Counted from the stretch's first letter, positions 3,606-45,386 are shown. The stretch is 45,887 bases of DNA from an uncultured Candidatus Saccharibacteria bacterium (GCA_964391095.1 CAYMJA010000005.1:1-45887), one strand, 5' to 3'. Notes: generated by a model from the letters alone, not told the origin. Made by a program: numbers and translations.

Positions 3606-3763
3606 GTTTAGCTAAAGACCTGAGAAAATTCTTGGGTCTTTTTTCTTTCCCGCTTTTTTTTCCGTCAAAAATAGCCTTGAAAAACCCCAATTTTTAATGT
3701 AAAATAAAAACCGGTTTAGAAAAATTTTAAAAACCAATCAATTTTAGCCAAAGCATTTAAAAA

Positions 3764-4222: not shown

Positions 4223-4254
4223 AAATTAATAAAATTCAGTCCAAAGCAGAGTTT

Positions 4255-4797: not shown

Positions 4798-4842
4798 TTG
4801 TGAAAATAAAAAAGAGAACTAAAATCTATACTGTTGAAATCT

Positions 4843-5205
4843 ATGAAAATTGTTTTTATCGCAGGTCCTTATTTTAGTAAAGGGGGCAGAGAAGAGATTG
4901 AGAAAAATATTCGCAATGCTGAGAAATATCAAATTGTCCTTGCTAATTCTCAAGTTCCTTTCTTTTGTGCCCATAGTCATACAGAGCACTTTGAGGAGAA
5001 AGCAAGTGCCCCTGAAGAATTTTACAGAAAAATGGACATGGAGATTTTAAAACGATGTTGTAATGCAGTACTTGCTTTACCTGATTGGGAAACTTCCAGT
5101 GGCGCTAAGGCAGAAGTAAAATGGGCTCAAGAAAATAATCTACCGGTTTTCTTTCCGAAGTCATTAGATGGTTTAACAGAGATAATAAATTGGGCAAAAA
5201 AATAA
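4843..5205 (+). CDS. DUF4406/DUF1937-like protein (nucleoside deoxyribosyltransferase-like fold)
   Basis: IVFIAGPY, LPDWETSSGAKAEV motif; ATG at 4843 preferred over TTG 4834. Confidence 0.75.
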   Translation: MKIVFIAGPYFSKGGREEIEKNIRNAEKYQIVLANSQVPFFCAHSHTEHFEEKASAPEEFYRKMDMEILKRCCNAVLALPDWETSSGAKAEVKWAQENNLPVFFPKSLDGLTEIINWAKK

Positions 5206-5391
5206 TATGTCAATAAAATTAAAAAATAAACCAATCAATTTTAGCCAAAGGATTTGAAAAATTATGGAAAATTGGCAGAGTTTAAGCAAGAATAAATCAG
5301 GGCTTGACAAGGGTTTTAGATTTGTTAAAATGAAAATAGTTAATCCCACTGCCTTCCTGTGTTTCGGCGCACGACGGCAGTTTTTATTTCT

Positions 5392-6008: not shown

Positions 6009-6308
6009 ATGAACCAAGAAAAACCCGGGCAAAAAAGAGAAATTAAGATTAAGATAACTGATGATGTAATAAGAGGAGTTTATGCGAATTTTATGAAAGT
6101 AAGTCATACTAAGGAGGAGTTTGTTTTGGATTTTGCAAATATAGTTCCTCCAACCGGCATAATTTCAGCCAGGATTATTACCAGTCCTGGTCATCTAAAA
6201 CGGGTTATCGGAGCCCTAGAATATAATTTAAAAAAATACGAGGAAAGATTTGGAAAAATTAAAGAAGCGGAAGAAATAAAAGAAGAAAAAGTCGGTTTTC
6301 GTACATAA
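6009..6308 (+). CDS. DUF3467 family protein
   Basis: GVYAN...SHTKEEFVLDF, RIITSPGHLKR, YEERFGKI. Confidence 0.85.
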   Translation: MNQEKPGQKREIKIKITDDVIRGVYANFMKVSHTKEEFVLDFANIVPPTGIISARIITSPGHLKRVIGALEYNLKKYEERFGKIKEAEEIKEEKVGFRT

Positions 6309-6371
6309 TCAAAATTTAGCCCGAAGTTGAAGGAAGTTTAACCAAACAGTTTTAGGTAAAGTGTTTAAAAA

Positions 6372-6830
6372 ATGAAAAAGATTAATTTTGAAGGGCTTAA
6401 AAAATTTGTGGCAGAAGCAAGGAGGAATACTTATGCTGGAGAGGGTAAATCAGTTGAGGATTTGAATTTGACTGGTTCAAAGCAACTTGAGTATAGAAAA
6501 GGTGATTATTTCTATCAAGATATCTATTTTGCAGGAAAGGATAATTTTGTTGGTCAAGAAGTTGTCTATTTTGAAGACAGCCCAATTTGGAGTATGGTTT
6601 ATTGCGGCTCTGCTGAGCCGCAAGAGGTCATCTCTTTTCTCAAAGAATCGCTATTAACTTTATCTGAAAGATGTCGTTTTGGAGGAGTGTGCGAATTTGA
6701 AGAAAATGATTTCCGATATGAGGATAAAGGAGAGGGAACAATGAGACGATTTAGCGGTAAAGAGCGAATATTCAAGAAAGGAGACAATATCTATGAATTA
6801 GATTATCACGGCGGTTTAATTGTTAAATAA
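6372..6830 (+). CDS. DUF5680-like protein (copy 2)
   Basis: Protein identical to 3764-4222. Confidence 0.75.
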   Translation: MKKINFEGLKKFVAEARRNTYAGEGKSVEDLNLTGSKQLEYRKGDYFYQDIYFAGKDNFVGQEVVYFEDSPIWSMVYCGSAEPQEVISFLKESLLTLSERCRFGGVCEFEENDFRYEDKGEGTMRRFSGKERIFKKGDNIYELDYHGGLIVK

Positions 6831-6862
6831 AAATTAATAAAATTCAGTCCAAAGCAGAGTTT

Positions 6863-7405
6863 ATGTTAAAAAATAATATACTGAAAGTAGCAGTAGGTTC
6901 TCGAAATCCAGTTAAAGTTGGGGCAGTAAAGAACGCTTTTGAAAAAGTGTTTGGTCTTGATGTCAAAGTTATAGGTGTTTCTGTTCCCTCTAATGTTTCT
7001 GACATGCCTATGAATTTTGAAGAAATGTTTGAGGGCGCTAAGAATAGAGCAAAGCGGGCAAGAAAAGAATTAGATGCTGATTTTGGTGTTGGCTTAGAGG
7101 GTGGCTTTGAAGACGAAAAAATAGGTACCTTTTTAAGTGGTTTTACAGCAATTGTTGATAAAAAAGGAACCTGGGGCTATGCTAAAGGATCAGGACTTTT
7201 AATGCCTAAGGAAATTGTTAAAGAAGTCAGAGAACAAGGAAAAGAATTAGGCGAAGTGATGGATAAAATAAGAGGATTGAAAAATACAAAACAGCACGAG
7301 GGCTGTGTTGGCTTTATGACAGACAATTTAATTCCAAGGCAAAAGGCATTTGAAAAAACAATTATTTATGCGCTTTCACGCTTTACTAAAAAAGAAATAT
7401 TTTAA
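6863..7405 (+). CDS. yjjX: Inosine/xanthosine triphosphatase (copy 2)
   Basis: Protein identical to 4255-4797. Confidence 0.9.
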   Translation: MLKNNILKVAVGSRNPVKVGAVKNAFEKVFGLDVKVIGVSVPSNVSDMPMNFEEMFEGAKNRAKRARKELDADFGVGLEGGFEDEKIGTFLSGFTAIVDKKGTWGYAKGSGLLMPKEIVKEVREQGKELGEVMDKIRGLKNTKQHEGCVGFMTDNLIPRQKAFEKTIIYALSRFTKKEIF

Positions 7406-7450
7406 TTGTGAAAATAAAAAAGAGAACTAAAATCTATACTGTTGAAATCT

Positions 7451-7813
7451 ATGAAAATTGTTTTTATCGCAGGTCCTTATTTTAGTAAAGGGGGCAGAGA
7501 AGAGATTGAGAAAAATATTCGCAATGCTGAGAAATATCAAATTGTCCTTGCTAATTCTCAAGTTCCTTTCTTTTGTGCCCATAGTCATACAGAGCACTTT
7601 GAGGAGAAAGCAAGTGCCCCTGAAGAATTTTACAGAAAAATGGACATGGAGATTTTAAAACGATGTTGTAATGCAGTACTTGCTTTACCTGATTGGGAAA
7701 CTTCCAGTGGCGCTAAGGCAGAAGTAAAATGGGCTCAAGAAAATAATCTACCGGTTTTCTTTCCGAAGTCATTAGATGGTTTAACAGAGATAATAAATTG
7801 GGCAAAAAAATAA
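7451..7813 (+). CDS. DUF4406/DUF1937-like protein (copy 2)
   Basis: Protein identical to 4843-5205. Confidence 0.75.
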   Translation: MKIVFIAGPYFSKGGREEIEKNIRNAEKYQIVLANSQVPFFCAHSHTEHFEEKASAPEEFYRKMDMEILKRCCNAVLALPDWETSSGAKAEVKWAQENNLPVFFPKSLDGLTEIINWAKK

Positions 7814-7897
7814 TTGAGAATTAAAATACAAAAGCCCACCGCTGGGCAATTTTTATTTGAAATCGCCAAGAGGGCGATTTTTTGGTAGAATGGAATA

Positions 7898-8476
7898 ATG
7901 GAAGAAAAAATTAAGAAAATAATATGGATTTCTGGCAGGTGTGGTTATGGTAAAACTGCATTTGCCAATTCTATAATTAAAGAATTTGAAGAGAAAAATA
8001 AAGAAACCTGTAAATTAGAGGGAAAAGACTTTGTAAACCTTTTGGTTGAAAATATAAGGAATAAGAATCCTATTGAGAATTTTGTGTTTTATTTTCAAAG
8101 CTATGATTTACTGGTGTTGGATGATATAGATTATTATTTATTAGGTAAAAAAGCTACTCAAAAAGCAATAAAAGAGGCTATACAGAAAATAACTAATAAT
8201 AACACTAAAGTGATTTTGATTACCCAAAAAAGAGCAAGAAAGTTGAGGAAATTAAAATTTGATAGCGACGAATGTTTCTATAAGCGGTTAAAAGCTCCGA
8301 CCGTAGAAATTAAAAGAAATTTAGTGAAAAGCTGGTTAAGGGTAGAAAGGTTAGTAATCCCAGAAGAAAAAACTAACGAAATTATAAATAAATCTAATAA
8401 TCTATTTCAACTTAAAGGATTATTTAATCAAATTTCTTTTCCCACAAAGGAAAATAGAATTAACTCTGGATTTTAA
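7898..8476 (+). CDS. DnaA/Hda-like AAA+ ATPase domain only
   Basis: Walker A GRCGYGKT, DFVNLLVENIR, Walker B YDLLVLDDID...KKATQ; no DnaA domains I or IV. Confidence 0.7.
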   Translation: MEEKIKKIIWISGRCGYGKTAFANSIIKEFEEKNKETCKLEGKDFVNLLVENIRNKNPIENFVFYFQSYDLLVLDDIDYYLLGKKATQKAIKEAIQKITNNNTKVILITQKRARKLRKLKFDSDECFYKRLKAPTVEIKRNLVKSWLRVERLVIPEEKTNEIINKSNNLFQLKGLFNQISFPTKENRINSGF

Positions 8477-8575
8477 CAGAAAACAAAAAGTCGAAGAATT
8501 AATTAAGAAAAATTAAACAATTAATTTTAGATAAAACCAAACAAAAAGTCGGGAGATTAATTAATTATAAAATTT

Positions 8576-8749
8576 ATGACTGAATTAACTATAAAGGAGA
8601 CACAACAAATCGTTGACAAATGGATTAAAACCGTTGGAGTTCGATATTTTTCTGAACTTACAATTTTGGCTCAGTTGGTCGAAGATGTTGGAGAAGTTGC
8701 CAGAAGAGATGCCAGCCGCCATAAAAATAACTTAAAATTAAGAAAATAG
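8576..8749 (+). pseudogene. Internally deleted MazG-like nucleotide pyrophosphohydrolase (YpjD type)
   Basis: MTELTIKETQQIVDKWIKTVGVRYFSELTILAQLVEDVGEVAR joined directly to RDASRHKNNLKLRK*; the ELAD motif half is missing. Confidence 0.75.
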
Positions 8750-8807
8750 TGATAAAAAGAGCTTTAAGTATAAAATAAAAATCGATTCTCAATCATAAAG
8801 AAAAAAG

Positions 8808-9494
8808 ATGAACAATAACAAAGCAATACAACTTTCGCCGAATTCATTAAATTTGTTTTTGGAATGTCAGCGTTGTTTTTGGCTGGAAAAGAAAGAGGGG
8901 ATTAGAAGACCGCCTTCTTATCCCTATGCCCTTAATATGGCGGTGGATGTTCTTTTAAAACAGGAGTTTGACAAATACAGGGCTAAGGGAGAGCCCCATC
9001 CGCTGCTTGTAGCTAACAATATTCCGGCCAAGCTTTTTTCAGACCAGGAATTATTAAACAAATGGCGTAGTAATTTTCAAGGGATAAGGTACTATGACAA
9101 AGAATTAGATGCCACTATTTTTGGAGCGGTTGACGACATTTTAGAATTTAAGAACGGCGAGTTGGCTCCGCTTGACTATAAATCAACCGGGAGCAAGGTG
9201 GCCAAAGTATATGACCGTTTTCAGCTGCAGATGGATGTTTATACTTATCTTTTGGAGAAAAACGGCTATTCAACTCCGAGGAAAGGTGTTTTGGCTTTTT
9301 ACATTGTTGACAAAGAAAACGGCTTTGAAAACAGATTGCCTTTTAGAAAAGAAGTGCATGTGATAGATACAGATCCTTCTTATGTCCAAAAGCTTTTTGA
9401 AGATGCGGTTGGGCTTTTGAGAAAAGATATCCCGCCTCCCTCCAATCCGGATTGCAAATTTTGCCAGTGGTTTAAAGAAGTGGCTAATTATTAA
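8808..9494 (+). CDS. PD-(D/E)XK nuclease family protein (Cas4/RecB-like)
   Basis: LSPNSL...CQRCFW, GAVDD, LDYKST, QMDVY, CKFC. Confidence 0.85.
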   Translation: MNNNKAIQLSPNSLNLFLECQRCFWLEKKEGIRRPPSYPYALNMAVDVLLKQEFDKYRAKGEPHPLLVANNIPAKLFSDQELLNKWRSNFQGIRYYDKELDATIFGAVDDILEFKNGELAPLDYKSTGSKVAKVYDRFQLQMDVYTYLLEKNGYSTPRKGVLAFYIVDKENGFENRLPFRKEVHVIDTDPSYVQKLFEDAVGLLRKDIPPPSNPDCKFCQWFKEVANY

Positions 9495-9696
9495 TAACGA
9501 GATAAATGTTAGTTAGGGTTAGGGTCTTCCCAAATTCAAAAAAGGAAGCAATAACTAAAAAGTCAGAAGATGGTAAAGTATATTTCTAAACCAAATTTTT
9601 CTTGACAAAAAATCATTGATATGGTAAGATAAAGCAAGCTATTGTTCTTTGAAATTTTAAAATTGATTGAAAAAACGAAGGAAAGGAGAAAGAAAA

Positions 9697-10014
9697 ATGG
9701 ATAATTTCAGCTTAAAGAAGACGATGAATTGGTTTATGGTTTTTTGTGTAGCTGTTTTGATTTTTCTAATGGGTTGCGTAAAAGAAAGTACAAAAAATTG
9801 CGCATGCGCAAAAGAAAACCCAAGAACCCGCCTGATGAAGAATCGGGCAGATACTGTTATCCGTTATCGGAATAGAGCGGCCAAGAAACCCGGTAGCACT
9901 CGAGTACACCATTATAAAGGCAGAAAGATAATTTCAACCCGAGGTTATCTATCGGGTAAGGAAGTGCGTCAGGTCCATCGTGAAAAATCACGCCAGTTCC
10001 GCCGCGGTCTATGA
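9697..10014 (+). CDS. Small basic putative lipoprotein
   Basis: ATG after AAGGAG; hydrophobic signal ending in lipobox LMGC. Confidence 0.6.
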   Translation: MDNFSLKKTMNWFMVFCVAVLIFLMGCVKESTKNCACAKENPRTRLMKNRADTVIRYRNRAAKKPGSTRVHHYKGRKIISTRGYLSGKEVRQVHREKSRQFRRGL

Positions 10015-10249
10015 AATCTTTCGAAAAAAACCATACCGTATCCAACCTAATAGCGACGATTAGGCGCGAGAGAAAAAATCTTGCGCCATTTTTTTTGACA
10101 AAAAATAATCGGTGTGATAAAAATAAAAACACTGATCTTTGAAAATTGAAGATGGAAGGTTAAAAACTTAACGAAAGAAAGGAGAAGGAACGATGGTAAG
10201 ACTCAGAAAACCTAAGAAAGAAGACAGAAAGATGAAAGGAGAAGGAACG

Positions 10250-11980
10250 ATGAACGGTTTTAGCTTGCGCGGAATTAAATGGATGATGTTTTTTTGCTTA
10301 ATTTTCCTGTTTTTTCAGGCAGGATGTACCAAAGAATCTCAAAAGAAAGAAGTCAGTCAAGTTAATGTTGGTAACTCAGACAACAGCCAGGCGTTGGACC
10401 TCAATATAGAAAACCTCATCTCCTCCGAGTACGAAACATTATCGTTGAAGCCTCTTCCTTTCCCTGCTGAGGGTTCTAGAATAAAGATCTCTGGAAACTT
10501 CGACTTTATGATGAGGGAAGCACCTGTCCTTGATCCTGAGGACCCTGGGTTTCATGAGGGAAATGCCTGCGAGTGGCACAAGCAAATGGCCGGGATGTTT
10601 ATGGTTAGCTCAATGATTGCATCTCCTGATTTCACTCAGTTAATGAAGGACTTAGCTTCGGCAACAACTAGCCAGATCGCAATTGGAAATCTGCTGGAAA
10701 AGATGATTAAATCAAACTCAGTAACTTCTGACCAAGCTCATATCACCTTGAATAATGCGCGCACTATTTTGCAACGTATTCGAGATTTTGAACCAAAGAC
10801 TAATGGGGATAAATTTCTGAAGCCATTTTTGGTAAAACATCTCTCTGACCAAATCAGGATTGCTACGATAATACTCGCGATGAGAGAAAAAACTACGCTG
10901 GTGAAAGGAAATCGATTACCAGAGCAGTTAAAAGATCTGGCTTCATTGATGAGAAAGTGGGCCGATGAGGTTAAGTTGTTAATTTTCCAACCCTCCATGA
11001 GCCCAGACTGTGTAAAAATGAGGAAGGCCCTCTGGATTGCCCTTAATAAACAAGCGGCGAGAATTGAATACGTGTTAAACGGGGATGCCGAAAAAGCCAT
11101 TCCTCTCTTGGAAAAAATGGGTGCTGATAAAGAGGCCGGGGCAGCATTATCATCAGAAAAGCGGCCGGGGGAAAAACAAATGGAAGCATTTGGTGAAGCT
11201 TTAAGAACCGCCGATCTGGAACAAATCAAAAGAATGGTTAAAAAATACCCGGCATTTCTGAAAGTCAATGTCAGTGCAGAGATGGACGGTATAACCTATT
11301 CAGCGACACCATTGCATCTGGCGATATCGTTGGGCAACAAAGAGATAGCCGAATTCTTCGTGGATCAGGGTATTAATATTGACACCTTGGACAGCAAAGG
11401 GCAGTCGCCACTTCATGTAGCGGTAATGTTGGGGAACAAAGATATTATAAAAATGCTGATCGCCAAGGGGGCAGATGTTAATTCCAAAGATGCAACAGGC
11501 AAAACCCCGATTTTCGCCGCGGTAATAGGTGGCAATATAGATTTACTGGAGCTCTTGGTGGCCAAAGGCGCTGACATCAATACCCGCGATAATGTGGGGA
11601 GTAGTCCCTTTGACATGGCTGTAATAGGAGGCAATAGAAATGCAATTGAATTTTTGCTAGCCAATGGTATCGATGTTAACTCTAAAGATAAAGATGGGGG
11701 GACACCATTGCATTCAGCAGCATTTAATGGCCATAAAGAAATTGTAGAACTTTTTCTAAACAAAGGCGCTGATATAAATGCCAAATCGCCTCCGAATAAT
11801 ACTACCCCATTACATCTAGCAGCAGCCCGAGGCCATTTTGAGGTGGTAAAGTTACTGCTAACAAGGGGGGCTGATATTAATACTAGAGATAAAAATGGCT
11901 ACACTCCTTTAGTCTACGCCAAAACCTACGACCATTTAGAGATTGCTAAGTTTTTCCAAGAACATGGAGGAAAAGAGTAA
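10250..11980 (+). CDS. Ankyrin-repeat putative lipoprotein (alternative start 10193)
   Basis: Signal peptide ending QAGC; about seven TPLH/GADIN ankyrin repeats in the C-terminal half. Confidence 0.9.
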   Translation: MNGFSLRGIKWMMFFCLIFLFFQAGCTKESQKKEVSQVNVGNSDNSQALDLNIENLISSEYETLSLKPLPFPAEGSRIKISGNFDFMMREAPVLDPEDPGFHEGNACEWHKQMAGMFMVSSMIASPDFTQLMKDLASATTSQIAIGNLLEKMIKSNSVTSDQAHITLNNARTILQRIRDFEPKTNGDKFLKPFLVKHLSDQIRIATIILAMREKTTLVKGNRLPEQLKDLASLMRKWADEVKLLIFQPSMSPDCVKMRKALWIALNKQAARIEYVLNGDAEKAIPLLEKMGADKEAGAALSSEKRPGEKQMEAFGEALRTADLEQIKRMVKKYPAFLKVNVSAEMDGITYSATPLHLAISLGNKEIAEFFVDQGINIDTLDSKGQSPLHVAVMLGNKDIIKMLIAKGADVNSKDATGKTPIFAAVIGGNIDLLELLVAKGADINTRDNVGSSPFDMAVIGGNRNAIEFLLANGIDVNSKDKDGGTPLHSAAFNGHKEIVELFLNKGADINAKSPPNNTTPLHLAAARGHFEVVKLLLTRGADINTRDKNGYTPLVYAKTYDHLEIAKFFQEHGGKE

Positions 11981-12254
11981 TAGAATACTGCTTCAAGCCC
12001 GGCGATAACTTCAAAGGGCTTTTTTATTTGCCCCGTTAGTTGAAGAAAATAGGGACGTTTCTGAATTTTATAGTTATAGTGATTTGCCAGAAGGTAGTTC
12101 TCTGACAATTCAGGCACAAGAAAAAATCTTTTGCGCCCTTTTTTATCCTGTAAATTTGACAAGAAATTATTGATGAGTTAAGATAAAATATTGCTCTTTG
12201 AAAATTTTAGTTGCGGAGATATTAAAAAAATCTTTCAGAAAGGAGGTGATTGAT

Positions 12255-13413
12255 ATGGAAAATAAAGAAGAGGGAAATAAAGAAGAACTAAATTCACTGA
12301 AAGCAGCATTCTGCGCCTTTGATAAGGGAATCATATCGGAAAAGGACTTCCGTAGAATTTTAGCTTCTGCATCAACAGATGTTCTAACCCGGTTCCTTAG
12401 GGCATACAACCATGACTATGATTCTCAGTTTAGCCGTTTAGGAACGCTTATTGTCCTGGAGTTGGGAAGAAAAAAGGACGAAAAGGCAGATGAAGCCCTT
12501 GTTTTTGCTGCCAGCGGCGACGAATTTACATACTCTCCAATAAAAAGCAATGCCCTTGGTATTTTGGGAGGGCGCATGAAAACCTGGAGGCCCAACGAGC
12601 TTGCTCGTGCTGCCACAGAAGGGGGTTACGATGTGGCAGACATTGCTCTTCAAATCCTGGGAAAAGAGAAAGTTGAAAAACTTGTGAAATCAGATCCCGA
12701 GTTGGCTGTGGTAGCTTTTGAGCATGACCGCGTAATGTTTGACAAAACATTAAATGCTGTTTTCGAATCCCTCGAAGAACATGAACTCGCCTTCCTTATT
12801 ATGGAACACCCCAACCACAAAGTCAGAGGGTGGGCTATTCACTATTCTAAGGGGAGAATGGGGAAAGATATCGGAGAAGCTCTTTTGCACGCTGCCACTC
12901 AGGATGAGAACAGGATAGTAAGATCTCGTGCTTTTGATGAATTGAAAAAGCACATGCCTGGTTGGGATCTACAAAAACTCATCTCCGCTGCCATGATGGG
13001 AAACTTTGATGTTACAGAACTTGTTCTCTTTATTCTGGAAAAAGAAAAAGCAAGAGAAGTAATCCTAGGCCGATAGAAACCTATCGGCCCATCTTTTTCC
13101 AAAATTTAATGAGGCGGAAAGCAATGTTCTGACTGTTCTGGAAAATCCTGCTTCAAAAGGCATTCACAACATAGTCTTCACCGGCGGAGTTCTCGAGGGA
13201 AGCAGATACTATTTTGGGACACTTTGCTCCGTAGTTCTGAGAAGATTTAAAGCCCATTGGGATGCTCCAAAAATTAGATGCATAAAACCAAAGGGCCACG
13301 CCGTGCTTGGAGCACTGATAATGGCTGCAACCAATGCCGGAATTGAAGTCAATGATGACTTCATCTCTGCGCTTCTGGAAAGTTGGGACAGGGTCAAGCG
13401 TGCTAACGCATGA
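12255..13413 (+). pseudogene. HEAT-like helical repeat protein with a frameshift near 13068
   Basis: SD AAGGAGGTG. First frame stops at 13076; the shifted frame 13069-13413 stays open, continues the internal repeat and ends just before a terminator at about 13430-13462. Confidence 0.65.
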
Positions 13414-13558
13414 TTTTGACCAGTCAATTAGGAGGGATTTTAAAAATTCCTCCCTTTTTTTTGACAAAAAATGGTTAATAAAGTAAAATAATCTATTGCT
13501 CTTTGAAAATTTAAATAGTCAAGAATTAAAGAAAATCTTTCAGAAAGGAGAAAGAGAA

Positions 13559-16500
13559 ATGAAGAAGCTAATGGTTGTTTTGGGAATGTTAGTTTTAGTT
13601 GTGCTATCAGGTTGCGGCAAAAGCACAGAAAAGGCCATAATTGGCAAATGGAAAGAAGTAGATAGCACCGAAACGATAGAGTTTTTTAAAGACGGGACAG
13701 TAACAGTAATTGATAAAGGAATGTCTATGTCGGGGAACTATAAGTTTGTAGGCAAGAACCGGATAAAAATGGAACTCGGCGGCTTAGGAGCTTTAATGGG
13801 ACCGATTGTTTCCAAGATATCTATTTCTGGAAACGAATTGAGTATGACTATGCCTGATGGAAAAATTGAAAGATATCAGAGATTGAAAAAATCAAGCAGT
13901 ATAGAGAAAAAAAGGAAAGTATTTAACAGGCGTAGAGAAAAGAAAACAAAAGAGCAAACTCAAGTTTTAAAGCCGATGCCAGAAAAAAAAGCTCCATTTT
14001 TTGAAGTTAAGTTTTCTTGGGGAAAATTTCGAATTGGAGATTTCTCTGTTGCTCTTAACTATCTAGACCGTGAACCGAGCAAAGCAAATTTGTATTTCGC
14101 TATTACGAAAGTTAAGCATACCGGTTCAGAAATTGGACCTGTAGCGATAACTTTAACCGATGACCATGAAAACAACTACTATGGTTCGCTTAATATTACT
14201 CCTTGTGATGATTTTCCTATTCGTTTGCTTCCAAAGAATTTCGCTTGGATAAGAAAAGTAAGCATAACTATGCCAAAGGCAGCTCCGATTGAGAGGATTC
14301 AGTTAGAAGACGGCAAAAAAATAGCATTCAAAAAGCTTAAGATAGTTAAGCTCAGATTTAAATCAGATTTTGGGAAAGCTCTTTTGCGGCCAGGAAAATC
14401 CGCTCCTGTAGGAAAGTTTCTTTTTTTTACTACCAATGGGATTATACCTGACCTTTATACCTGGGCCCTTTCAGTGACTGTAGAAAATAAGGAATATAAC
14501 GAATTAAGAGCTGATGTGAAATGCGCTATCCAATTTACTGATGGGACGATTAGTTCTCTAGGGTTACCAGTAAGTGTAGCAATCCCCGGATTATCCAAAA
14601 AGACAGTCCAAATAAAGCTTCGTTCTTTGCAAGATAGAAAAGTACCTCAATTAAAAACATTACTAATATTCTATCGTGATTATAACTCTGGCCAAACAAC
14701 TCTTAAATTATGGCCAATTTCCGACAAGAACTTGCCTCCTCGGGTAGGACAGGGAGCAAAAGAGGAAATCTTTATTGATGCCTATCAACGCAATGGCGGT
14801 CGTGAGCGTATGGAAAATCCTGTTGAATTGCCTCGTTGGTACGTTGGAGTGATTAGACCAAAGGATGAGCAGGACTTACTAATTCAGAGATTTCCAAAAG
14901 CCATTATTGTTTGGGACAAACAGCATTATGCTTCAAGGGCTTATGTTTTAAAAGGGCCTATTTTGAAGAAATATATAGAATTGGGAGGTCCATATCATTG
15001 CTCCGAGAGCCAGAAAGCTCTTTTCTTGGGCGCGCCAACCAGTGAACTAAAACCCTGCAAATCCGCTTTTGGTACCAAAGGTAACTTTGTTGCCTTTAAG
15101 GGCGGAGCGATATTTTTGCAAAATAATCGAACTTTTGTTCTTATGGGCAAAATAGGCCAGAAATGGGATGAACAAGAAGATGCCTTAGGTTTTCCTATTA
15201 GCGATATTCAACCTACTGTTTCCGATGTTCTCGGTTCTGACAACAAGGGCTGGGTTCAGGAATTTGAAGGCGGTTATATTTACTACATCACGAAAGGCGA
15301 ACAGGTAGGACAGGTTTTTGGAATATCTGGAACTATAGCGAAAATATACTCAAAAGCAAGTTGGCTTGGTCTTCCCATATCAGATACTTATAGTAGTCCG
15401 GAGACAGGCCACGATCAGTGTGATTTCGAGAAGGGCTATATAGCAAGCTCTGACGGAAAAACATTTCAGGTATTCCACTATGAGCCGGGTGTGATTGCCT
15501 TCGTTTCTGACAGAGACGGCAATAAAGAAATATATCTAACAGATGCCAGTGGTAGAAAACAAACAAATTTCACCAACAACCCATCTGACGATTGGTGTCC
15601 AGCTTGGTCACCCGATGGAAAAAAAATTGCTTTTGTGTCTAATAGAGGTGGCAAAGAAGGCATATATCTTATGAACGTAGATGGTAACGATCAAAGATTT
15701 TTGACGGCTGGAAAAGAACCCTCTTGGTTTCCCGATGGCGAGAAAATTATATTCTCGAAACCTATGACTTTTATTAGAAAGATTGTGTGGGAAACAAAGA
15801 AAGAGTCGTTGAAGCGAATATTTGCTATAAAAATTGATGGAACCGAGATTAGACAAATTTCTCCCGATGCTAGCACTGCAGAGATTGACGACTTTAAATG
15901 GCTACTAAGGAGACATTTCGTTGCGCCGGTGGTTTCGCCAGACGGCTCTAAAATAGCGTTTGCTGGGGGAGACTGGGGGAGTGGACATCCTTACAGTATT
16001 AATTTAATGAACATAGATGGAAAGCATGTGGAGAGCTTATCGAAACGGTTAGGAGAAAAATCGCAAAGCGGGGCAAATCCTTCTTGGTCTCCTGACGGCA
16101 CGAGAATCGCTTTCAGGTGTGACAGGGGCTATGATGGTCCAATTGGTAATGTGGGACGTATTCACATCGCCGACCTTAAAAAGTCACTAATTTCCGACCC
16201 ATATTTAAAGGTTATTTGGCGTTGTAGTGGACTGGACTGGTCGTCCGACGGTTCATCTCTTGTGTTCTCTGGGTATAAAGAAACAGGATATACATACACG
16301 GGAACTGTCGATATTTACATTGTGCGTCCCGGTTTAAAGGTCATTCGTAAGATAACTAAAGGGCAAGGGAATAACTATGATCCATCATGGACAACCGGGA
16401 AACAGGAAGGAAAAACAAAGATAGTTTCTAAAAAGAGAAGTGTTCCGAGCGAGAAGATATCAGAAATTAGTATTCCGGGCAAGTATATTCTGGAAACAGT

Positions 16501-16999
16501 TAATTCTAAAGGAAAGCGATTAAGTTGGGAGCCCGGAGCAATGTTCCTTAAAAAAGACGGTGTTGTTTCAGCTCAATATTCTGGCAGATGGAAAATTGAA
16601 GGTAATTTGATAAACTTCTATGAAGAAAGCAAGAAAGTAGGAAAAGGAAAACTCTCCAGTATTGCTATAGAGAATTGGTCGGTCTATGACGAGCCATCTT
16701 GGTCTGCCAATAAGATTGTTCCCCAAAATGGAGCAACAATAATTAAGCAATCTTCAGGAGAAAATATAGTGTTTAGTGCTTATCTTTCTCCGCAAAATAA
16801 TTCTTTTGACTTAAAGTTAAAAGAAGATGGCACGTTTTTAATGAAAGGAATTTTGAAAGAAACCTGGAAAATTGAAAATGGAACTTTCCAGATTTATAGA
16901 GGCGGCAGAAAAACTGATTTCAGCGACGGAAGAATTGATGGCAATAACGTAGTATTTAAGTTTGAAGACGGTTTTCTTCGACTCACAAGACAAGATTAA
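13559..16999 (+). CDS. Large multidomain lipoprotein: LGFP-like repeats plus TolB/PD40 beta-propeller
   Basis: Lipobox LSGC; LGAPTS/LGFPIS/LGLPIS...EFEGG repeats; PAWSPDGKKIAF repeats. Confidence 0.85.
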   Translation: MKKLMVVLGMLVLVVLSGCGKSTEKAIIGKWKEVDSTETIEFFKDGTVTVIDKGMSMSGNYKFVGKNRIKMELGGLGALMGPIVSKISISGNELSMTMPDGKIERYQRLKKSSSIEKKRKVFNRRREKKTKEQTQVLKPMPEKKAPFFEVKFSWGKFRIGDFSVALNYLDREPSKANLYFAITKVKHTGSEIGPVAITLTDDHENNYYGSLNITPCDDFPIRLLPKNFAWIRKVSITMPKAAPIERIQLEDGKKIAFKKLKIVKLRFKSDFGKALLRPGKSAPVGKFLFFTTNGIIPDLYTWALSVTVENKEYNELRADVKCAIQFTDGTISSLGLPVSVAIPGLSKKTVQIKLRSLQDRKVPQLKTLLIFYRDYNSGQTTLKLWPISDKNLPPRVGQGAKEEIFIDAYQRNGGRERMENPVELPRWYVGVIRPKDEQDLLIQRFPKAIIVWDKQHYASRAYVLKGPILKKYIELGGPYHCSESQKALFLGAPTSELKPCKSAFGTKGNFVAFKGGAIFLQNNRTFVLMGKIGQKWDEQEDALGFPISDIQPTVSDVLGSDNKGWVQEFEGGYIYYITKGEQVGQVFGISGTIAKIYSKASWLGLPISDTYSSPETGHDQCDFEKGYIASSDGKTFQVFHYEPGVIAFVSDRDGNKEIYLTDASGRKQTNFTNNPSDDWCPAWSPDGKKIAFVSNRGGKEGIYLMNVDGNDQRFLTAGKEPSWFPDGEKIIFSKPMTFIRKIVWETKKESLKRIFAIKIDGTEIRQISPDASTAEIDDFKWLLRRHFVAPVVSPDGSKIAFAGGDWGSGHPYSINLMNIDGKHVESLSKRLGEKSQSGANPSWSPDGTRIAFRCDRGYDGPIGNVGRIHIADLKKSLISDPYLKVIWRCSGLDWSSDGSSLVFSGYKETGYTYTGTVDIYIVRPGLKVIRKITKGQGNNYDPSWTTGKQEGKTKIVSKKRSVPSEKISEISIPGKYILETVNSKGKRLSWEPGAMFLKKDGVVSAQYSGRWKIEGNLINFYEESKKVGKGKLSSIAIENWSVYDEPSWSANKIVPQNGATIIKQSSGENIVFSAYLSPQNNSFDLKLKEDGTFLMKGILKETWKIENGTFQIYRGGRKTDFSDGRIDGNNVVFKFEDGFLRLTRQD

Positions 17000-17003
17000 A
17001 CTG

Positions 17004-17043
17004 ACAATAAAAGGGCTGAATTTTCCAGCCCTTCTTTTTTTTC
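17004..17043 (+). terminator. Intrinsic terminator, near-identical to 19983-20020
   Basis: AAGGGCTG...CAGCCCTT followed by T-run. Confidence 0.8.
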
Positions 17044-17195
17044 TCCAATTTTCTACAGAATCCGATAGGATATTTTTGTAGAAAAAGTTTTGACAAGAGC
17101 TAAAAAAATTGTAAGATTAAAATAGTACTTTGAAAACTGCATATTAGCAGATTTGAAAGAAATGAAAATCTTGATTGAAAAGAAAGGAGAAAGAA

Positions 17196-19976
17196 ATGAA
17201 AAGATTGATGGTGTTAGGAGTACTTATAGTAGGTCTTCTGATTGGTAGGCGAGCAGATGCCTTTTTTAGGGAAGATACAATTAAAAAAACCAGCAAAGAG
17301 CTTAAGGCCTCTCAATATAAGGGTCCTCCCCACATAGACAGCATAGAGCCATCCTTAGGAGCGCCAAATATACCTATTACAATAAAGGGAAGAAATTTAG
17401 GGTCCCGCTGGGTGAGATTTGGATGGCAAACAGCCGAAGTAATAGATTACAGCGATGATAAAATTGTAGTTAGGGTTCCTCCTCCCCCTTATCGGAAGAA
17501 CAGAACAGTTAAAGTAAAAGTAGGAACACTTGAGATTAGCAATAGTCTTTTATTTACCTATAAGGATCCTGAGATAAAATCAATTTTTCCCTCTTCGGGG
17601 AAAATAGATACAGAAGTAACAATAGAGGGTCGGTATTTCGGAGTTAAGGGTATCCATTCCATCCTTCCCCATCCTACCTTTTGGGTAAAATTTGGTAAAT
17701 CTTGCGTTGGGCTTGATATAAAAATATGGGAAGACAAAAAGATAGTTGTAAAAGCCCCTTCGGATTATGGAACAGGCAAATTAGATGAGAGAATGACGAA
17801 GTGGATGATAAAATTTGCTATCGCTGGAGCTACTGGGGGGATAACTATTCCCGAGTTTGTTCTTGATGTTATTAAAGACCTTGCCACGAGTGGGGTAAGG
17901 ATACCTCCGGGAAAAAGTAAAATATTAGTAGATGTAGCAATAAGAACTCCTGTCGGAACAAGCAATACCAAAGTATTTACCTATCAGCTTTCAGATGAGA
18001 ATTTGCCACCCGAGGGGGAGGAAGAAGTCCCAGAACATTTAATCTTTGCTGTGTATGCTACCCGGGCGGGACATGTTGGTGATAAAACTGCAAATGGGCA
18101 TCTGATTCAATCCAACGATCATTTTGTAGCCCTACCTTCAAATAAAGTCCTTTGCAGCAAAGGAGGCCGCCAGTTTGAGGTACGCATTACTTACCAAGGA
18201 AAGTCTGTAATAGCCCCGGTATGGGATGTGGGTCCCTGGAATATCTATGATAATTATTGGGAACCTGAACTCAAAAGAGAGATTTACGACCATCTTCGTT
18301 TTGGAGGTCAACCTGGGCTTGGTCAAGGAATTCCAGAGGCTCAAGCAGCCAAGTTGAATAATTATAACAAAGGATTTAGTGGAGATTTTTTGCCCCATAA
18401 ACTTCCTCAAGGTCAGTATGTTAAAAGTCCTGCTGGGATTGATTTAGCCGATGGCACCTGGAATGATCTTGGAATGACTGACAATGATTGGGTAACAGTA
18501 GAGTTTTTGTGGACTATCTCTAAACCGGTTAGTCCTGAAGAAGGACTGGTTACAGCTTTGGTAATAGACAGGTCGGGTAGTATGAGGGGAGAGAAAATTA
18601 AAAAAGCCAAGATTGCTGCTTATATTTATGTTAATACCAGCCAACCGGGAAGAGATTCAGTTTCATTGGCAGCTTTTTCCAGTGATGGCAAAAGTATCGC
18701 TGAACCGATTTCCATAAATAATGAAGGAAAAGAGATTCTAAAAAAAGATATTTCTTCTCTTTCAGCCGGAGGAAATACCAATGTTGGCTCAGGATTAACT
18801 ATAGCTCTTGGTCATCTTTCTTCTTCTAATCGGAAAGATAAGAAAGCAGTTCTAATATCTGATGGCAGGCATAATACCGGTACCTATAAGCCGGAAGTTG
18901 CTGAGTTTCAAAAAAGAGGATGGCCAATTTATACGGTGGCTTTTGGCGGAGACGCTGACCGAGAAATGCTTAACTGGATTGCCAATCAAACTGGTGGCCA
19001 GTCCCTCGCGCTTGATATGGCTAATATAGGCAGCGGTTATCACAAGATTAATGTTATGGCTCACAACGGCTCGATTTACCGCAGTTACAATGATTTTATT
19101 CGGCCGGGGCAAAAATTAACTTATAATATTCCGGTTGAGCCAGATATGAAAAGGGTGGGATTTTTCACCAACTGGCAGGGAAGCAAAATGGAGACAATTC
19201 TCTTTTCTCCCAGCAAAACGATGATAAATCGCTCCAATATCAGTAATCAGGGAAGATTTATTGAGGGAGAAACCCACAGTTGCTTTGAGATAGATAACCC
19301 TCAGTGCGGTAATTGGCAGGCCATTATTGCCGGATATGACCTTCCCTCAAAAGGAGAACAGGTTAATTTTCACTCCTTTTGCCAGTCAGATATTTTTTCC
19401 AATGTTTTGAGCTTTCAGCCCAGATATTCTCAAAATCAGGAAGTTCAAATTGGAGTAAAGTTAGCTGAAGTGATAAATGGTCGTCTTTCACCTTTAAGAG
19501 GAGCTCAACCTACAGCTGAAATCAGAAAACCTTCTCCTTCTTTGGAAAAGTTTATTTCTAAGGTTAAAGGAAATAGATTACAGTCCCGGGATATTTTTAC
19601 AATTTTCCAGGAGGTTTCCGGATTTACTGGAAAAATTACTCTTTATGACGATGGGCTTCATAAAGATGTTAGGCCTGGAGACGGGATTTATGCTAATAGT
19701 TACAAGGATACCACTATCAATGGTCCCTATCTGGTTACCATTAATTTTCAGGGTTATACTGCTCAAGGGATGCCGGTTAAAAGAACTCTTCAAGAATCTT
19801 TTCAGGTCGGACCCATTGAACAAAATTCTTTTACTGTCAGCGATTTTCTTAACTTGATAAACCAGCAGGGCAATAACAGACAGGCGCCTAGATATATACC
19901 TGGCCAAGAGCCAGAGGAGATAAAACCTGATGAGATTATAAAGAATCTGCTTGGCCAATTTTTAAAACAGAAATAA
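17196..19976 (+). CDS. Secreted protein with IPT/TIG domains, RlpA-like double-psi barrel region and vWA domain
   Basis: Signal peptide; two P.I.SI.P..G IPT repeats; TANGH...WDVGPWN...GIDLADG; MIDAS DRSGS; LYDDG...DGIY. Confidence 0.8.
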   Translation: MKRLMVLGVLIVGLLIGRRADAFFREDTIKKTSKELKASQYKGPPHIDSIEPSLGAPNIPITIKGRNLGSRWVRFGWQTAEVIDYSDDKIVVRVPPPPYRKNRTVKVKVGTLEISNSLLFTYKDPEIKSIFPSSGKIDTEVTIEGRYFGVKGIHSILPHPTFWVKFGKSCVGLDIKIWEDKKIVVKAPSDYGTGKLDERMTKWMIKFAIAGATGGITIPEFVLDVIKDLATSGVRIPPGKSKILVDVAIRTPVGTSNTKVFTYQLSDENLPPEGEEEVPEHLIFAVYATRAGHVGDKTANGHLIQSNDHFVALPSNKVLCSKGGRQFEVRITYQGKSVIAPVWDVGPWNIYDNYWEPELKREIYDHLRFGGQPGLGQGIPEAQAAKLNNYNKGFSGDFLPHKLPQGQYVKSPAGIDLADGTWNDLGMTDNDWVTVEFLWTISKPVSPEEGLVTALVIDRSGSMRGEKIKKAKIAAYIYVNTSQPGRDSVSLAAFSSDGKSIAEPISINNEGKEILKKDISSLSAGGNTNVGSGLTIALGHLSSSNRKDKKAVLISDGRHNTGTYKPEVAEFQKRGWPIYTVAFGGDADREMLNWIANQTGGQSLALDMANIGSGYHKINVMAHNGSIYRSYNDFIRPGQKLTYNIPVEPDMKRVGFFTNWQGSKMETILFSPSKTMINRSNISNQGRFIEGETHSCFEIDNPQCGNWQAIIAGYDLPSKGEQVNFHSFCQSDIFSNVLSFQPRYSQNQEVQIGVKLAEVINGRLSPLRGAQPTAEIRKPSPSLEKFISKVKGNRLQSRDIFTIFQEVSGFTGKITLYDDGLHKDVRPGDGIYANSYKDTTINGPYLVTINFQGYTAQGMPVKRTLQESFQVGPIEQNSFTVSDFLNLINQQGNNRQAPRYIPGQEPEEIKPDEIIKNLLGQFLKQK

Positions 19977-19982
19977 AAATTA

Positions 19983-20020
19983 ACAATAAAAGGGCTGGAA
20001 AATCCAGCCCTTCTTTTTTT
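19983..20020 (+). terminator. Intrinsic terminator
   Basis: AAGGGCTGGA AAA TCCAGCCCTT followed by T-run. Confidence 0.85.
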
Positions 20021-20163
20021 GAGGTTTTACGACCGACCTTAAACAAAAACTTGACAAACTTGCCTGAATTGATAAAATAAAGTTAGTGCTGAGAACAGCT
20101 TATGTTAAGTTTAGCGAAGCGTTTCTCAGTTTTGATAACTAAAAAAGGAAAGGAGAGATAAAA

Positions 20164-20586
20164 ATGAAGAAGATGGTAACTCTGGGACTGATTGTCTTAA
20201 TGGTGGTTATTTCCACTAGCTGCGCAACTAAGGGTCGGACAGGTGCTCTACTCGGTTCCGTGCTCGGAGCAGGTACTGGAGCAATTATCGGTCACCGATC
20301 AGGCCATGCAGCTGAAGGCGCTCTTGCTGGCGGTGCTCTCGGAGGAATCGGCGGTTATGTTGTAGGCAATGAGATGGATAAAGGCCAAGCCAAACAAACA
20401 ACCCAACAAGATATTGAAGCTGCTAGGCAAGCCGCCAATACTACTGTGGTTAATATTCATAACAGCAACGGAAGCATTACTCCGGTAGTAATAAAGCAAG
20501 TAGGAGGGAGATGGATAGGGCCTCGCGGAGAGGAATATATCTCTTGTCCCACCGAAGAACAGTTGAAACCAGTTTATGGATTCTAA
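20164..20586 (+). CDS. Glycine-zipper putative lipoprotein
   Basis: Signal ending STSC; GALLGSVLGAGTGAIIG...GALAGGALGGIGG. Confidence 0.8.
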   Translation: MKKMVTLGLIVLMVVISTSCATKGRTGALLGSVLGAGTGAIIGHRSGHAAEGALAGGALGGIGGYVVGNEMDKGQAKQTTQQDIEAARQAANTTVVNIHNSNGSITPVVIKQVGGRWIGPRGEEYISCPTEEQLKPVYGF

Positions 20587-20710
20587 CCCAGTCCAAAAAA
20601 GCCTTCAAAAAGCGCGGAAGATTGATAATATCATTCGCGCTCTTTTTTTGATAAAAAATAATTAATTTGTTAAAATAGAATTAGTACCTTAATAAGAAGA
20701 AAGAGGGGTG

Positions 20711-21153
20711 ATGAAAGTGAGAAAACAATTGAAAAGAAAAATCCAAGGGGGCTGGAAGAGAAAAGATGGAATTTTCGTCGAGATTAGAAAAGAAGTTCAA
20801 AAGAAGATGTCAACAGAACCGGAATTTTCAGCTATTATTGGTAAATTGAGGGAGGATAAGGTTGCTAAAGCACTTCAGAGTTTAAAAGAGAAGGGAGAAA
20901 TTCATGATTACTTAAAGTCAGGAAAATTAAGTTATCTTGATTTAATTGAGGGGGTGGATTTTATTTTCATTTATATTGATGGCTGTTATAAAGTTTGTCG
21001 TTTTTCAGTAACCGGATGGAGGTGGCTCGAAGAGCATCAAAAAAACATCCTGAAATTCCAACATTGCCAATTACCTTAGAAGAGAGCAGGAAGTCGGTTG
21101 AACAAAAAATTATGCAGATCTTGAAAAATAATGAGAGTAAGCAATCTCATTAA
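20711..21153 (+). pseudogene. Hypothetical protein with apparent frameshift in an A7 tract
   Basis: Adding one A at 21039-21045 gives ...HQKKHPEIPTLPITLEESRKSVEQKIMQILKNNESKQSH*, ending right before a hairpin at about 21155-21187. Confidence 0.6.
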
Positions 21154-21218
21154 TAAAGAGCTCATTTGTTCTAAGATGGGCTCTTTAATCTGTTTAAGAA
21201 ATTTGATAAGATAATCTA

Positions 21219-43129: not shown

Positions 43130-43274
43130 AATTATATAAGACATAAGACGTTAGTTTTCTATATTTTCTTTAATTTTATCAGATTTGGCTAAAAAATCAA
43201 GGGGTTTGACCCTTCACCCAAAGCTTTGGGTGAAGGGTTGATAATTTTTTTTATAGTGATACAATAATACCATA

Positions 43275-45116: not shown

Positions 45117-45150
45117 TTTGACCCTTCACTCAAAGCTTTGGGTGAAGGGC

Positions 45151-45178
45151 TTGACAAAGATTTTTAGAAAAGTAAAAT
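45151..45178 (+). promoter_or_regulatory. rRNA operon promoter; boxA-like GAACTTTGACAA downstream at 45305-45316
   Basis: TTGACA, 16 nt, TAAAAT. Confidence 0.75.
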
Positions 45179-45386
45179 AAAAATAGAAAGGTTAAGAAGT
45201 TTAATGACCCGGATTAAGAAGTTCAAAAAATGAATTAAAAAGAGTAAAAATTGAAGACGCATCAGAGAAAAATCAGGAGTGTCTTCCTGATTTTATTTTA
45301 GAAAGAACTTTGACAATTGAATAATTCAGTTTTTTAGAGTTGTCCCGACCTGCCCGCAATGCTTCGCATAGCGATGCAGGCGGGCT

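Follow-up and report, generated by a model that had tools for sequence, protein, structure and literature searches.

Bacteria of the Candidate Phyla Radiation (CPR) possess very small genomes with few regulators, and the ways in which their surface proteins, the mediators of an attached lifestyle, are expressed and renewed are little understood. The question is raised by an accessory island at positions 9602-20650 of CAYMJA010000005.1, a contig of an uncultured Candidatus Saccharibacteria bacterium (GCA_964391095.1), in which one mostly unrelated open reading frame (ORF) after another follows a similar promoter and leader: what are these promoter-leader units, and do the genes between them change? 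The analysed stretch, called the window here, is the whole contig (C5; 45,887 nucleotides) of an 18-contig, 567,614-base genome that is 96% complete and is designated G000. An initial annotation had described seven consecutive monocistronic units with related heads and tails, and had proposed that a capture or shuffling mechanism places foreign ORFs between reusable regulatory modules. We compared the island with the 38 other genomes of a CPR family set (39 including G000; the named members are G005, G010, G014, G017, G172 and G182) and with a second set of 26 planctomycete-type genomes, namely G186 (5.3 Mb, labelled as a Pirellulales metagenome-assembled genome) and 25 relatives, including G189, G191 and G192. 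The comparison leads us to the view that the island probably consists of six self-contained, promoter-carrying cassettes that are exchanged by recombination at conserved junctions, without a dedicated capture enzyme.

Heads, tails and cargo of the island

The seven best promoter-like sites on the + strand between positions 9000 and 22000 (9602, 10095, 12156, 13461, 17090, 20051 and 20648) matched 10-11 of 12 consensus positions each, and an ORF starts 60-160 nt downstream of every one of them (corrected starts are given in Table 1). Every unit has its own TTGACA-N16-18-TAnnnT site (with a TTGATA -35 box in H7) and a strong Shine-Dalgarno (SD) sequence. Terminator-like hairpins on the same strand lie 3' of ORFs at 10063, 13068, 13431, 17011, 19990 and 21154. 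Intergenic similarity was measured by local alignment scores, expressed as z against shuffles. The island intergenic regions IG0, IG1, IG2 and IG3b aligned with one another at z = 12-28 and IG4 with IG5 at z = 14.5, while eight other intergenic regions of the window, aligned with those of the island as a control, gave z of at most 3.7. The promoter sites and these scores confirm the seven monocistronic units with related heads and SD sequences that had been described.

Several repeats make up this likeness. A 37-nt promoter repeat (D1) occurs in five copies that are 73-81% identical to the reference copy. The heads at 12.2 and 13.5 kb, for which a shared sequence had been reported, do contain a 91-nt repeat (D2; 12155-12245 and 13460-13550, 78% identical without gaps) that includes AAAATCTTTCAGAAAGGAG, and the homology of H3 and H4, which stand before the unrelated ORF3 and ORF4, extends precisely from the -35 box to the SD (80.4% over 92 nt, z = 27.7). 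The reported kinship of the tails was also borne out, both for the terminators at 16998-17041 and 19977-20020 (D6; 86% over 44 nt) and for the pair at 10071-10096 and 12119-12144 (D13; 77%). Two further features hold for a part of the array: our regular expression for the boxA-like box matches six of the seven heads, H6 having a hairpin and a degenerate box, and the T-run of a terminator stands directly against the next -35 box at three of six junctions (10088, 13454 and 20641), with gaps of 13-49 nt at the other three.

Two heads carry a duplication of the SD and start. In H2 (10179-10253) the two ATGs are in frame, and in H5 (17155-17209) a short out-of-frame ORF starts at the upstream copy and overlaps the start of ORF5; the duplication in the G014 ORF4 head is arranged as in H5. 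The headless stretch at 13100-13460 has no homolog and no Pfam match and may be a decayed cassette. Its segment 13153-13413 was considered as a gene remnant, on a likeness to the C-termini of BadF/GlcNAc-kinases, and was dropped for want of a Pfam match, even at E = 5, and of any longer homolog.

The cargo of the island is compositionally odd and patchily distributed, and appears to consist of lipoproteins and secreted multidomain proteins, three of them without recognisable relatives. The GC content of the island is 0.400 compared with 0.349 for the remaining window. The GC-richness that had been noted for the ORFs holds for ORF1 to ORF6, with GC of 0.395-0.485 and third-position GC (GC3) of 0.33-0.43 (UvrD and enolase have GC3 of 0.28-0.29), and does not hold for ORF7 (GC 0.349), which is a native gene and not cargo. 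Since ORF7 is native in composition and is conserved beside UvrD in G017, where a 45%-identical gene is found, the island proper is ORF1-ORF6. A metagenome scan anchored on ORF7 gave 2 loci, with only one clear relative, 64% identical and in a different gene context, and so yielded no copy of the locus from a near strain.

N-terminal signals, assigned by eye, are present in five of the seven products. ORF1, with a signal that ends in …FLMGC, has no Pfam family; over the first 33 aa it shares 48% identity with the start of ORF2, and the mature parts of the two are unrelated. ORF2 has a lipoprotein signal, an N-terminal part of ~320 aa that is found in none of the 38 other family genomes and matches nothing but itself in a large protein collection, and C-terminal ankyrin repeats. 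ORF3 lacks a signal peptide and has weak HEAT-like repeats; it is likewise found in none of the 38 genomes, and had only four weak repeat-type matches among 1.8 billion representatives (E 8e-8 to 2e-5). ORF4 is a lipoprotein with DUF5640/lipocalin-like ends and LGFP and PD40 repeats. The secreted ORF5 contains two TIG domains, an extra widespread domain, a VWA domain and a conserved C-terminal half, and is a mosaic; the C-terminal half alone is matched by ~25 proteins (~60-74% identity) with different N-terminal halves, and the middle domain (~170 aa) matches many unrelated proteins. ORF6 is present in G014 and G010.

The boxA of the heads

To judge from sequence, the box of the heads is none other than the rRNA-operon boxA of this family. 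In the leaders of these operons (rrn) the box was found at the orthologous place in all six family genomes compared (G000, G014, G172, G182, G010 and G017), 3' of a hairpin and 5' of a conserved CAGTTTTTTAGAGTTGT, as in TGTTCTTTGAAAA of G014 and AGTTCTTTGAAAA of G017. The sequence AGAACCTTGAAAATTGAATAA of the G014 heads agrees with AGAACTTTGACAATTGAATAA of the G000 rRNA leader at 19 of 21 positions. Baniulyte et al. 2017 (PMC5725501) give GYTCTTTAANA as the gamma-proteobacterial boxA consensus and describe boxA sites before protein genes in that group. At the sequence level the island heads, the boxes of which are listed in Table 1, belong to the class of boxA leaders.

The box starts 6-12 nt 3' of the -10 box and lies within the transcript only if transcription starts at the predicted site. 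The leaders of H3 and H4 fold no better than shuffles (z of at least 0) and are predicted to be unstructured; a hairpin is predicted 5' of the box in H6 (z = -2.3) and 3' of the box in H5 (z = -3.3). Palindromes were also seen around the rRNA promoter. One of ~32 nt, CCCTTCAC…GGTGAAGGG, lies at 43204-43240 and 45117-45150, directly against the -35 boxes of the rpsB and rRNA promoters, and another, GC-rich and of 37 nt, lies at 45348-45384 between the rRNA leader and the 16S start and recurs at 85-100% identity elsewhere in G017, G010 and G172.

The heads are not specific to the island. They are a standard promoter-leader of the genome and of the family, enriched before GC-rich accessory genes. 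G000 contains 116 sites that fit TTGAC[AT]-N16-18-TAnnnT, of which 20 have the box at most 35 nt after the -10, with ~0.8 expected from the genome-wide frequency of the regular expression. Among the 563 genes called, mean GC is 0.413 for those with promoter and box (n=15), 0.380 for those with the promoter only (n=45) and 0.348 for those with neither (n=503); the Mann-Whitney test of the first against the last group gave p = 3e-6, or p = 2e-4 without the island (n=11), although the box enrichment and this GC association are both inflated to an unknown degree because the regular expression was composed after seeing these promoters and gene calling was crude. The strict promoter-to-box pattern had 52 matches in 26 of the 39 family genomes, and its reversed control had 1. 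Of eight box-driven genes outside the island that were scanned with Pfam, six have no family; the other two encode a NamZ muramidase with a pilin-type head and a member of the histidine phosphatase superfamily. G010 holds another array of four near-identical heads, each immediately 3' of a GC hairpin, the genes of which encode diaminopimelate (DAP) dehydrogenase, small membrane proteins and lipoproteins, and CdsA. The tail of the T4/T5 type occurs in 7 of the 39 family genomes and in 2 genomes of a thin 151-genome sample of the order, and it stands behind ORF4 and ORF5 in G000 and behind three distinct ORFs in G014.

Inheritance and exchange of cassettes

As markers of distance within the family we used enolase and PPDK; UvrD was not found in G014, G010 and G182. 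Enolase identity to G000 decreases from G017 (79%) through G172 (72%) and G014 (64%) to G010 (60%), and that of the C-terminal half of ORF5 from G014 (72%) through G010 (66%) to G172 (64%), so that cargo similarity does not run parallel to that of the core genes. ORF5 is found in four of the 39 family genomes (G000, G014, G010 and G172) and full-length ORF4 in two (one of the 38 besides G000), and short proteins with the end domains of ORF4 occur in G172, G182 and G005. The closest genome, G017 (enolase 79%, UvrD 84%), has neither ORF4 nor ORF5. G014, which belongs to another genus, keeps the order ORF4-ORF5-ORF6 downstream of hisC, not beside UvrD, and each ORF there has its own head and tail; amino acid identities are 46-51% for ORF4, 32-36% for the N-terminal part and 72% for the C-terminal half of ORF5, and 46% for ORF6.

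Similarity among the heads follows other lines than that among the ORFs. The head of ORF4 in G014 scores 66 with H5 of G000 and 24 with H4, the heads of two ORF6 orthologs are unrelated (score 19), and the nearest relative of H6 is a head in G172 before a different ORF (score 60). Within genomes the scores reach 42-88 for H1-H4 of G000 and 73-108 for three heads of G014, and two heads of G182 before unrelated ORFs are identical at 92 of 92 nt. The pattern points to local duplication or gene conversion of modules, and heads and tails are reusable modules that are uncoupled from the ORFs. This portion of the earlier proposal stands; the portion on capture is not supported, as no dedicated machinery was found and the heads are a family-wide standard.

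Exchange across a larger distance came to light in a scan for the C-terminal half of ORF5 with one genome per species, which had matches only in G014 and in contig L066 of G186. L066 carries an insert of ~4.2 kb (6230-10465) between an aminotransferase gene and NIF3. The flanks have a GC of 0.44-0.55 and encode chorismate-binding, aminotransferase IV, NIF3, ScpB, esterase and heparinase-like proteins. In 14 of the 25 relatives of G186 the site is empty, with matches to the flanking genes 13-176 nt apart on one contig; these include G192, the relative most like G186 in the flanks, and the site in G189 was inspected individually. Since the insert and flank proteins are recorded from further assemblies as well, on contigs of up to 79,878 nt, a chimeric contig is argued against. 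The hairpin-head pattern occurs among the 26 planctomycete-type genomes only in the inserts of G186 and G191, and in the CPR family 8 times in 6 of 39 genomes; the strict promoter-box pattern had no match in G186. Because heads are found only inside the insert and 14 relatives have empty sites, we take G186 to be the recipient. The 3' end of the aminotransferase gene is repeated over 43 nt on either side of the insert's first part, which may be a relic of the insertion.

G191 carries an insert at this site too, and both flanks and the part from head 1 through DUF2085 are conserved (83%). Between G186 and G191 a 167-nt junction is 88% identical; it runs from the final 38 nt of the ORF before head 2, through this head, into the first codons of the ORF after it. 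In G191, an unrelated 813-aa protein with BNR-like repeats (seen by eye), one domain of which is ~30% identical to part of ORF4, takes the place of the 2.2-kb ORF5 homolog, and a 178-aa ankyrin lipoprotein that of the ORF4-like lipoprotein. The two related genomes share the junctions of this site, and their cargo differs.

Public data add to the picture of the G000 locus itself. The stretch is contained wholly or partly in 20 entries labelled salt marsh metagenome, with no RNA data set listed among its holders, and the four runs that were aligned (X5, X8, X9 and X10) hold the same strain as short contigs. The structural variants for which read mapping had been suggested did not appear, with no supported variant at the locus in these four runs; the listed joints have 21-53 letters on the shorter side and 88% likeness and were not trusted. 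Loose ends of single contigs after 9773, 12257 and 13049 were considered as the same heads with other cargo in other organisms and were too weak to count. In two of the four runs, one contig each has a single-base insertion near 20623/20625, a position that falls in the T6 tail shortly before H7.

Table 1. Features of the island, of the rRNA leader in the window and of the insert in contig L066 of G186 (window positions; insert features in their order)
Feature	Position	Strand	Description
Head H1	9602..9696	+	TTGACA-17-TAAGAT promoter, box TGTTCTTTGAAAT at 9643, SD GGAAAGGAG
ORF1	9697..10014	+	105 aa, lipoprotein-type signal, very basic tail
Tail T1	10063..10095	+	hairpin GGCGCGAGA…TCTTGCGCC, T-run continuing into next TTGACA
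Head H2	10095..10249	+	promoter, box TGATCTTTGAAAA at 10133, SD and ATG duplicated 57 nt apart (10193, 10250)
ORF2	10250..11980	+	576 aa (595 aa from start 10193)
Tail T2	12112..12144	+	degenerate copy of T1
Head H3	12156..12254	+	promoter, box TGCTCTTTGAAAA at 12192, SD
ORF3	12255..13076	+	273 aa
Tail T3	13068..13098	+	hairpin GGCCGATAG…CTATCGGCC
Headless stretch	13100..13460		open on both strands, GC ~0.44, own terminator 13431-13453
Head H4	13461..13558	+	promoter, box TGCTCTTTGAAAA at 13497, SD
ORF4	13559..16999	+	1146 aa lipoprotein
Tail T4	16998..17041	+	AAGGGCTGAATTTTCCAGCCCTT and T-run
Head H5	17090..17195	+	promoter, box AGTACTTTGAAAA at 17124, hairpin, SD region duplicated at 17155 and 17189
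ORF5	17196..19976	+	926 aa secreted protein
Tail T5	19977..20020	+	AAGGGCTGGAAAATCCAGCCCTT and T-run
Head H6 (type B)	20051..20163	+	promoter, hairpin GCTGAGAA…TTTCTCAG, degenerate box, SD
ORF6	20164..20586	+	140 aa glycine-zipper lipoprotein
Tail T6	20607..20647	+	long-loop hairpin; second copy on contig C3 at 44948-45000, 89% identical
Head H7 and ORF7	20648..21079	+	TTGATA -35 box, box AGTACCTTAATAA; ORF7 of 123 aa, GTG start 20708
G000 16S rRNA promoter and leader	45151..45386	+	TTGACA-17-TAAAAT, hairpin, boxA AGAACTTTGACAA at 45304
L066 insert 1			type-B head
L066 insert 2			63-aa zinc-ribbon ORF
L066 insert 3			DUF2085 gene
L066 insert 4			ORF5 homolog; 59% in N-terminal part, 72% in C-terminal half; GC 0.393
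L066 insert 5			second type-B head, hairpin GCTGAGAGCGTTTCTCAG and AATTGAATAATTT, shortened promoter spacer, degenerate box
L066 insert 6			297-aa lipoprotein with ORF4 N- and C-terminal domains (52%, 27%)
L066 insert 7			T4/T5-type tail

To the right of the array the window holds core genes, with a UvrD/PD-(D/E)XK helicase-nuclease, FtsZ, glycolysis genes, rpsB-tsf and the 16S rRNA start at 45387; an Rfam scan of the window matched only a tRNA and the 16S start. Ahead of the island, a segment of 1.5 kb is present in two copies of 99.1% identity (3731-5226 and 6339-7833), which encode DUF5680, DUF84 NTPase and DUF7768/DUF4406 genes and have an NYN-domain gene between them. The hairpin AAATCGCC…GGCGATTT at 7860-7897, followed by TGGTAGAAT, is a multi-copy motif found with 85-97% identity at many sites in many related genomes, and its neighbours on both sides are many and varied in the public runs. 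A short open frame at 8576-8740, to which a 41-aa stretch in G017 is 83% identical, presumably resembles the start of a MazG-type pyrophosphohydrolase. The ~70 nt at 9504-9574, between the PD-(D/E)XK gene and H1, are 77-79% conserved in six related genomes on unrelated contigs and match no Rfam family.

Explanations of the array and its likeness to known systems

We propose that a cassette comprises a consensus sigma-70 promoter, a short leader that opens with the boxA of the rRNA operons (replaced in a single head by a hairpin with a degenerate box), a strong SD, one ORF and an intrinsic terminator, and that each gene would be transcribed singly and at a high level. NusB, which is encoded in G000 (117 bits), and NusE would bind the 5'-terminal, unstructured boxA and turn RNA polymerase into an rRNA-type elongation complex. 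The terminator-promoter-leader junctions would spread and be homogenised locally through duplication and gene conversion. Because their conservation would make them crossover points for ordinary homologous recombination, cargo ORFs could be replaced between fixed junctions. Whole cassettes also pass horizontally from one CPR genus to another and have entered a planctomycete-type genome. The outcomes of such exchange are visible in the comparisons above, and homologous recombination is its probable mechanism; RecA is present in the genome.

Besides the inflated box statistics, several observations weigh against this explanation. The classical role of boxA against Rho may not apply in G000, since no Rho RNA-binding domain was found in this genome, and the terminator at the end of each unit is odd alongside an antitermination signal. 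The order ORF4-ORF5-ORF6 kept in G014 suggests that the array was partly inherited, or moved as a block, on that time scale; of the vertical inheritance and synteny that the initial annotation had named as speaking against slot swapping, this much is seen. The swap of ORFs between conserved heads and tails that it had looked for across genomes was found at the homologous locus of G186 and G191, thus in a single pair of metagenome-assembled genomes. Neither an empty site nor a swapped slot was shown for the G000 island itself, in the comparison with G017 and in the contigs of the public runs, and no empty site can be defined there because the closest genome shares only ORF7-UvrD with G000 around the island. 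The direction of transfer, from a CPR-type donor, is one that we infer because heads are found only inside the insert, the spacer of its second promoter is shortened, and the cargo has a GC of 0.39-0.42 compared with 0.44-0.55 in the flanks.

Some of the same evidence would fit a vertically inherited cluster of highly expressed envelope genes in which heads and tails are alike by convergence on optimal signals and nothing moves. The heads are a genome-wide standard, the three ORFs are syntenic in G014, cargo identities of 46-72% are within the range of core proteins between these genera, and the window contains no mobility gene. We nevertheless regard such a cluster as unlikely, because the homology of H3 with H4 (80% over 92 nt) and of the G182 pair covers non-consensus spacer and leader positions, orthologous ORFs have non-orthologous heads, the genes occur patchily and ORF4 and ORF5 are missing from the closest relative, and the same heads, tail and cargo are inserted in a 5.3-Mb non-CPR genome with relatives that have empty sites. 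Could the island instead have been acquired recently as a block, from a non-CPR donor or a phage or plasmid, with heads that came along or were recruited later and with transfer from a planctomycete or third party into CPR bacteria? The island GC of 0.40 versus 0.35, with GC3 raised too, speaks for this, as does a cargo GC of ~0.39-0.42 in both hosts, as if it were the cargo's own composition; moreover, the C-terminal half of ORF5 has ~70%-identical relatives labelled as other phyla, such as an Aminicenantales partial protein, and ~40%-identical ones labelled Acidobacteriota and Bathyarchaeota. We give block acquisition only a small chance of being right, since the Pirellulales-type genomes have heads only inside the insert and 14 relatives are empty, since the heads match the CPR family's own rrn boxA and many other family promoters, and since no phage contig has head or tail in context: in a viral contig collection the head-hairpin and tail patterns had 4 matches each, all eight in unrelated contexts. 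A third party may nonetheless have been the donor.

Site-specific capture as in integrons, by a recombinase encoded elsewhere and with the hairpin tails acting as attC, is extremely unlikely. Integron cassettes are typically promoterless, and integron arrays line up single unrelated genes, often orphans, in one direction and with a content that varies among related genomes; the present array is likewise a one-way row of single genes, often without relatives and differing from genome to genome, and every cassette has a hairpin at its end. The genome encodes three tyrosine recombinases (PF00589 matches on contigs C3 and C10). However, the initial impression that no integrase or attC is visible held up, with no integrase among the Pfam-scanned ORFs of the window or, by ORF lists and Pfam scans, beside the arrays in G000, G014, G172, G186 and G191. 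No long imperfect palindromes were seen at the tails (no attC model was run), which are plain perfect 8-12-bp GC hairpins with T-runs and not the 57-141-nt imperfect palindromes of attC. Every cassette has its own promoter instead of one shared Pc, and the conserved block of tail, head and first codons is that expected of homologous exchange. The resemblance to integrons, without IntI, without attC and with a promoter per cassette, is superficial, and all three defining features are absent. The suggested search for recombinases or reverse transcriptases elsewhere in the genome yielded nothing beyond the three recombinases and a single reverse transcriptase gene, on other contigs. The latter (C1, 85791-86423) lies in a unit at ~83400-87000 with gap-free repeat pairs at 84577/85058 (117 nt, 85%) and 83420/86780 (182 nt, 86%) and a very GC-rich ORF at 83915-84700, which looks like a diversity-generating retroelement; it was rejected as the engine of the island, with which it has no repeat in common. 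Also highly unlikely is a variable surface-lipoprotein family of the Mycoplasma vlp/vsp kind, with a promoter and signal block before divergent mature parts and on/off switching. Like the vlp/vsp/vsa loci, with their lipoprotein gene clusters and conserved 5' region in a tiny genome, the island lies in a tiny genome, of an organism probably attached to other cells; H1 and H2 have the head in common, along with a 33-aa lipoprotein signal (48%) before unrelated mature parts, and five of seven products have a signal. Yet the signal peptide is common to the ORF1/ORF2 pair only, the cargo is mostly unrelated and not paralogous, the promoters contain no long homopolymer or tandem repeat (A-runs are 6-7 nt), neither a phase-variation repeat nor an invertase or invertible element was found, and no variation in head length was seen in the four public runs.

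On balance we favour the exchange of promoter-carrying cassettes at conserved junctions. A bolder form of it, which we consider possible though doubtful, is that the junctions are portable adaptors for expression and recombination that serve a pool of surface-protein cassettes across phyla, an integrase-free analogue of the integron with homologous swaps at the junctions, gene flow between CPR and larger bacteria and an rRNA-type leader ensuring full transcription of GC-richer genes. The planctomycete-type genome might belong to a partner or host of the CPR bacterium. The locus and its relatives show an entire class of accessory genes wired to an rRNA transcription signal, junctions that are kept and genes between them that change, and cassettes that cross phylum boundaries together with their regulatory parts. 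If this is general, the promoter with boxA and the hairpin-type tails would provide a sequence handle for fast-evolving CPR surface genes, and the same handle would trace gene flow between CPR bacteria and their neighbours or hosts.

Among known systems, the rRNA leader is the closest to the heads themselves. The antitermination site of rRNA leaders consists of a boxB hairpin, boxA and boxC and is bound up with a NusB/NusE/NusA/NusG complex (PMC5725501). The head box has the same sequence as the family's 16S-leader boxA, close to the consensus quoted above, the type-B heads keep the rrn order of hairpin and then box, and NusB is encoded. Unlike in rrn leaders, the box is predicted to come first, at the 5' terminus, in the short leaders of many accessory genes, with a terminator after each. 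The boxA sites of the suhB type repress translation beside the SD in a Rho-dependent manner, whereas here the box stands 40-60 nt before the SD and a Rho RNA-binding domain was not found. In the literature searched we found no paper tying boxA or antitermination to CPR/Patescibacteria, and none in which complete junction modules arranged as arrays are combined with a leader of the rRNA type, replacement of cargo at fixed junctions and spread across phyla along with the regulatory parts. Putative mobile promoters (Nijveen, Matus-Garcia, van Passel 2012, PMC3575422) are highly similar upstream regions before non-homologous genes, within a genome and across taxa and with no known mobile element, and count as such when identity is 80% or higher across 50 nt or more ahead of coding sequences that are not homologous; H3/H4, with 80.4% over 92 nt, and the G182 pair, with 92/92, are within these bounds. 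Unlike putative mobile promoters, the unit that is reused in the arrays is the complete junction of terminator, promoter, boxA leader and SD, which travels with its cargo between phyla and between copies of which the cargo is replaced.

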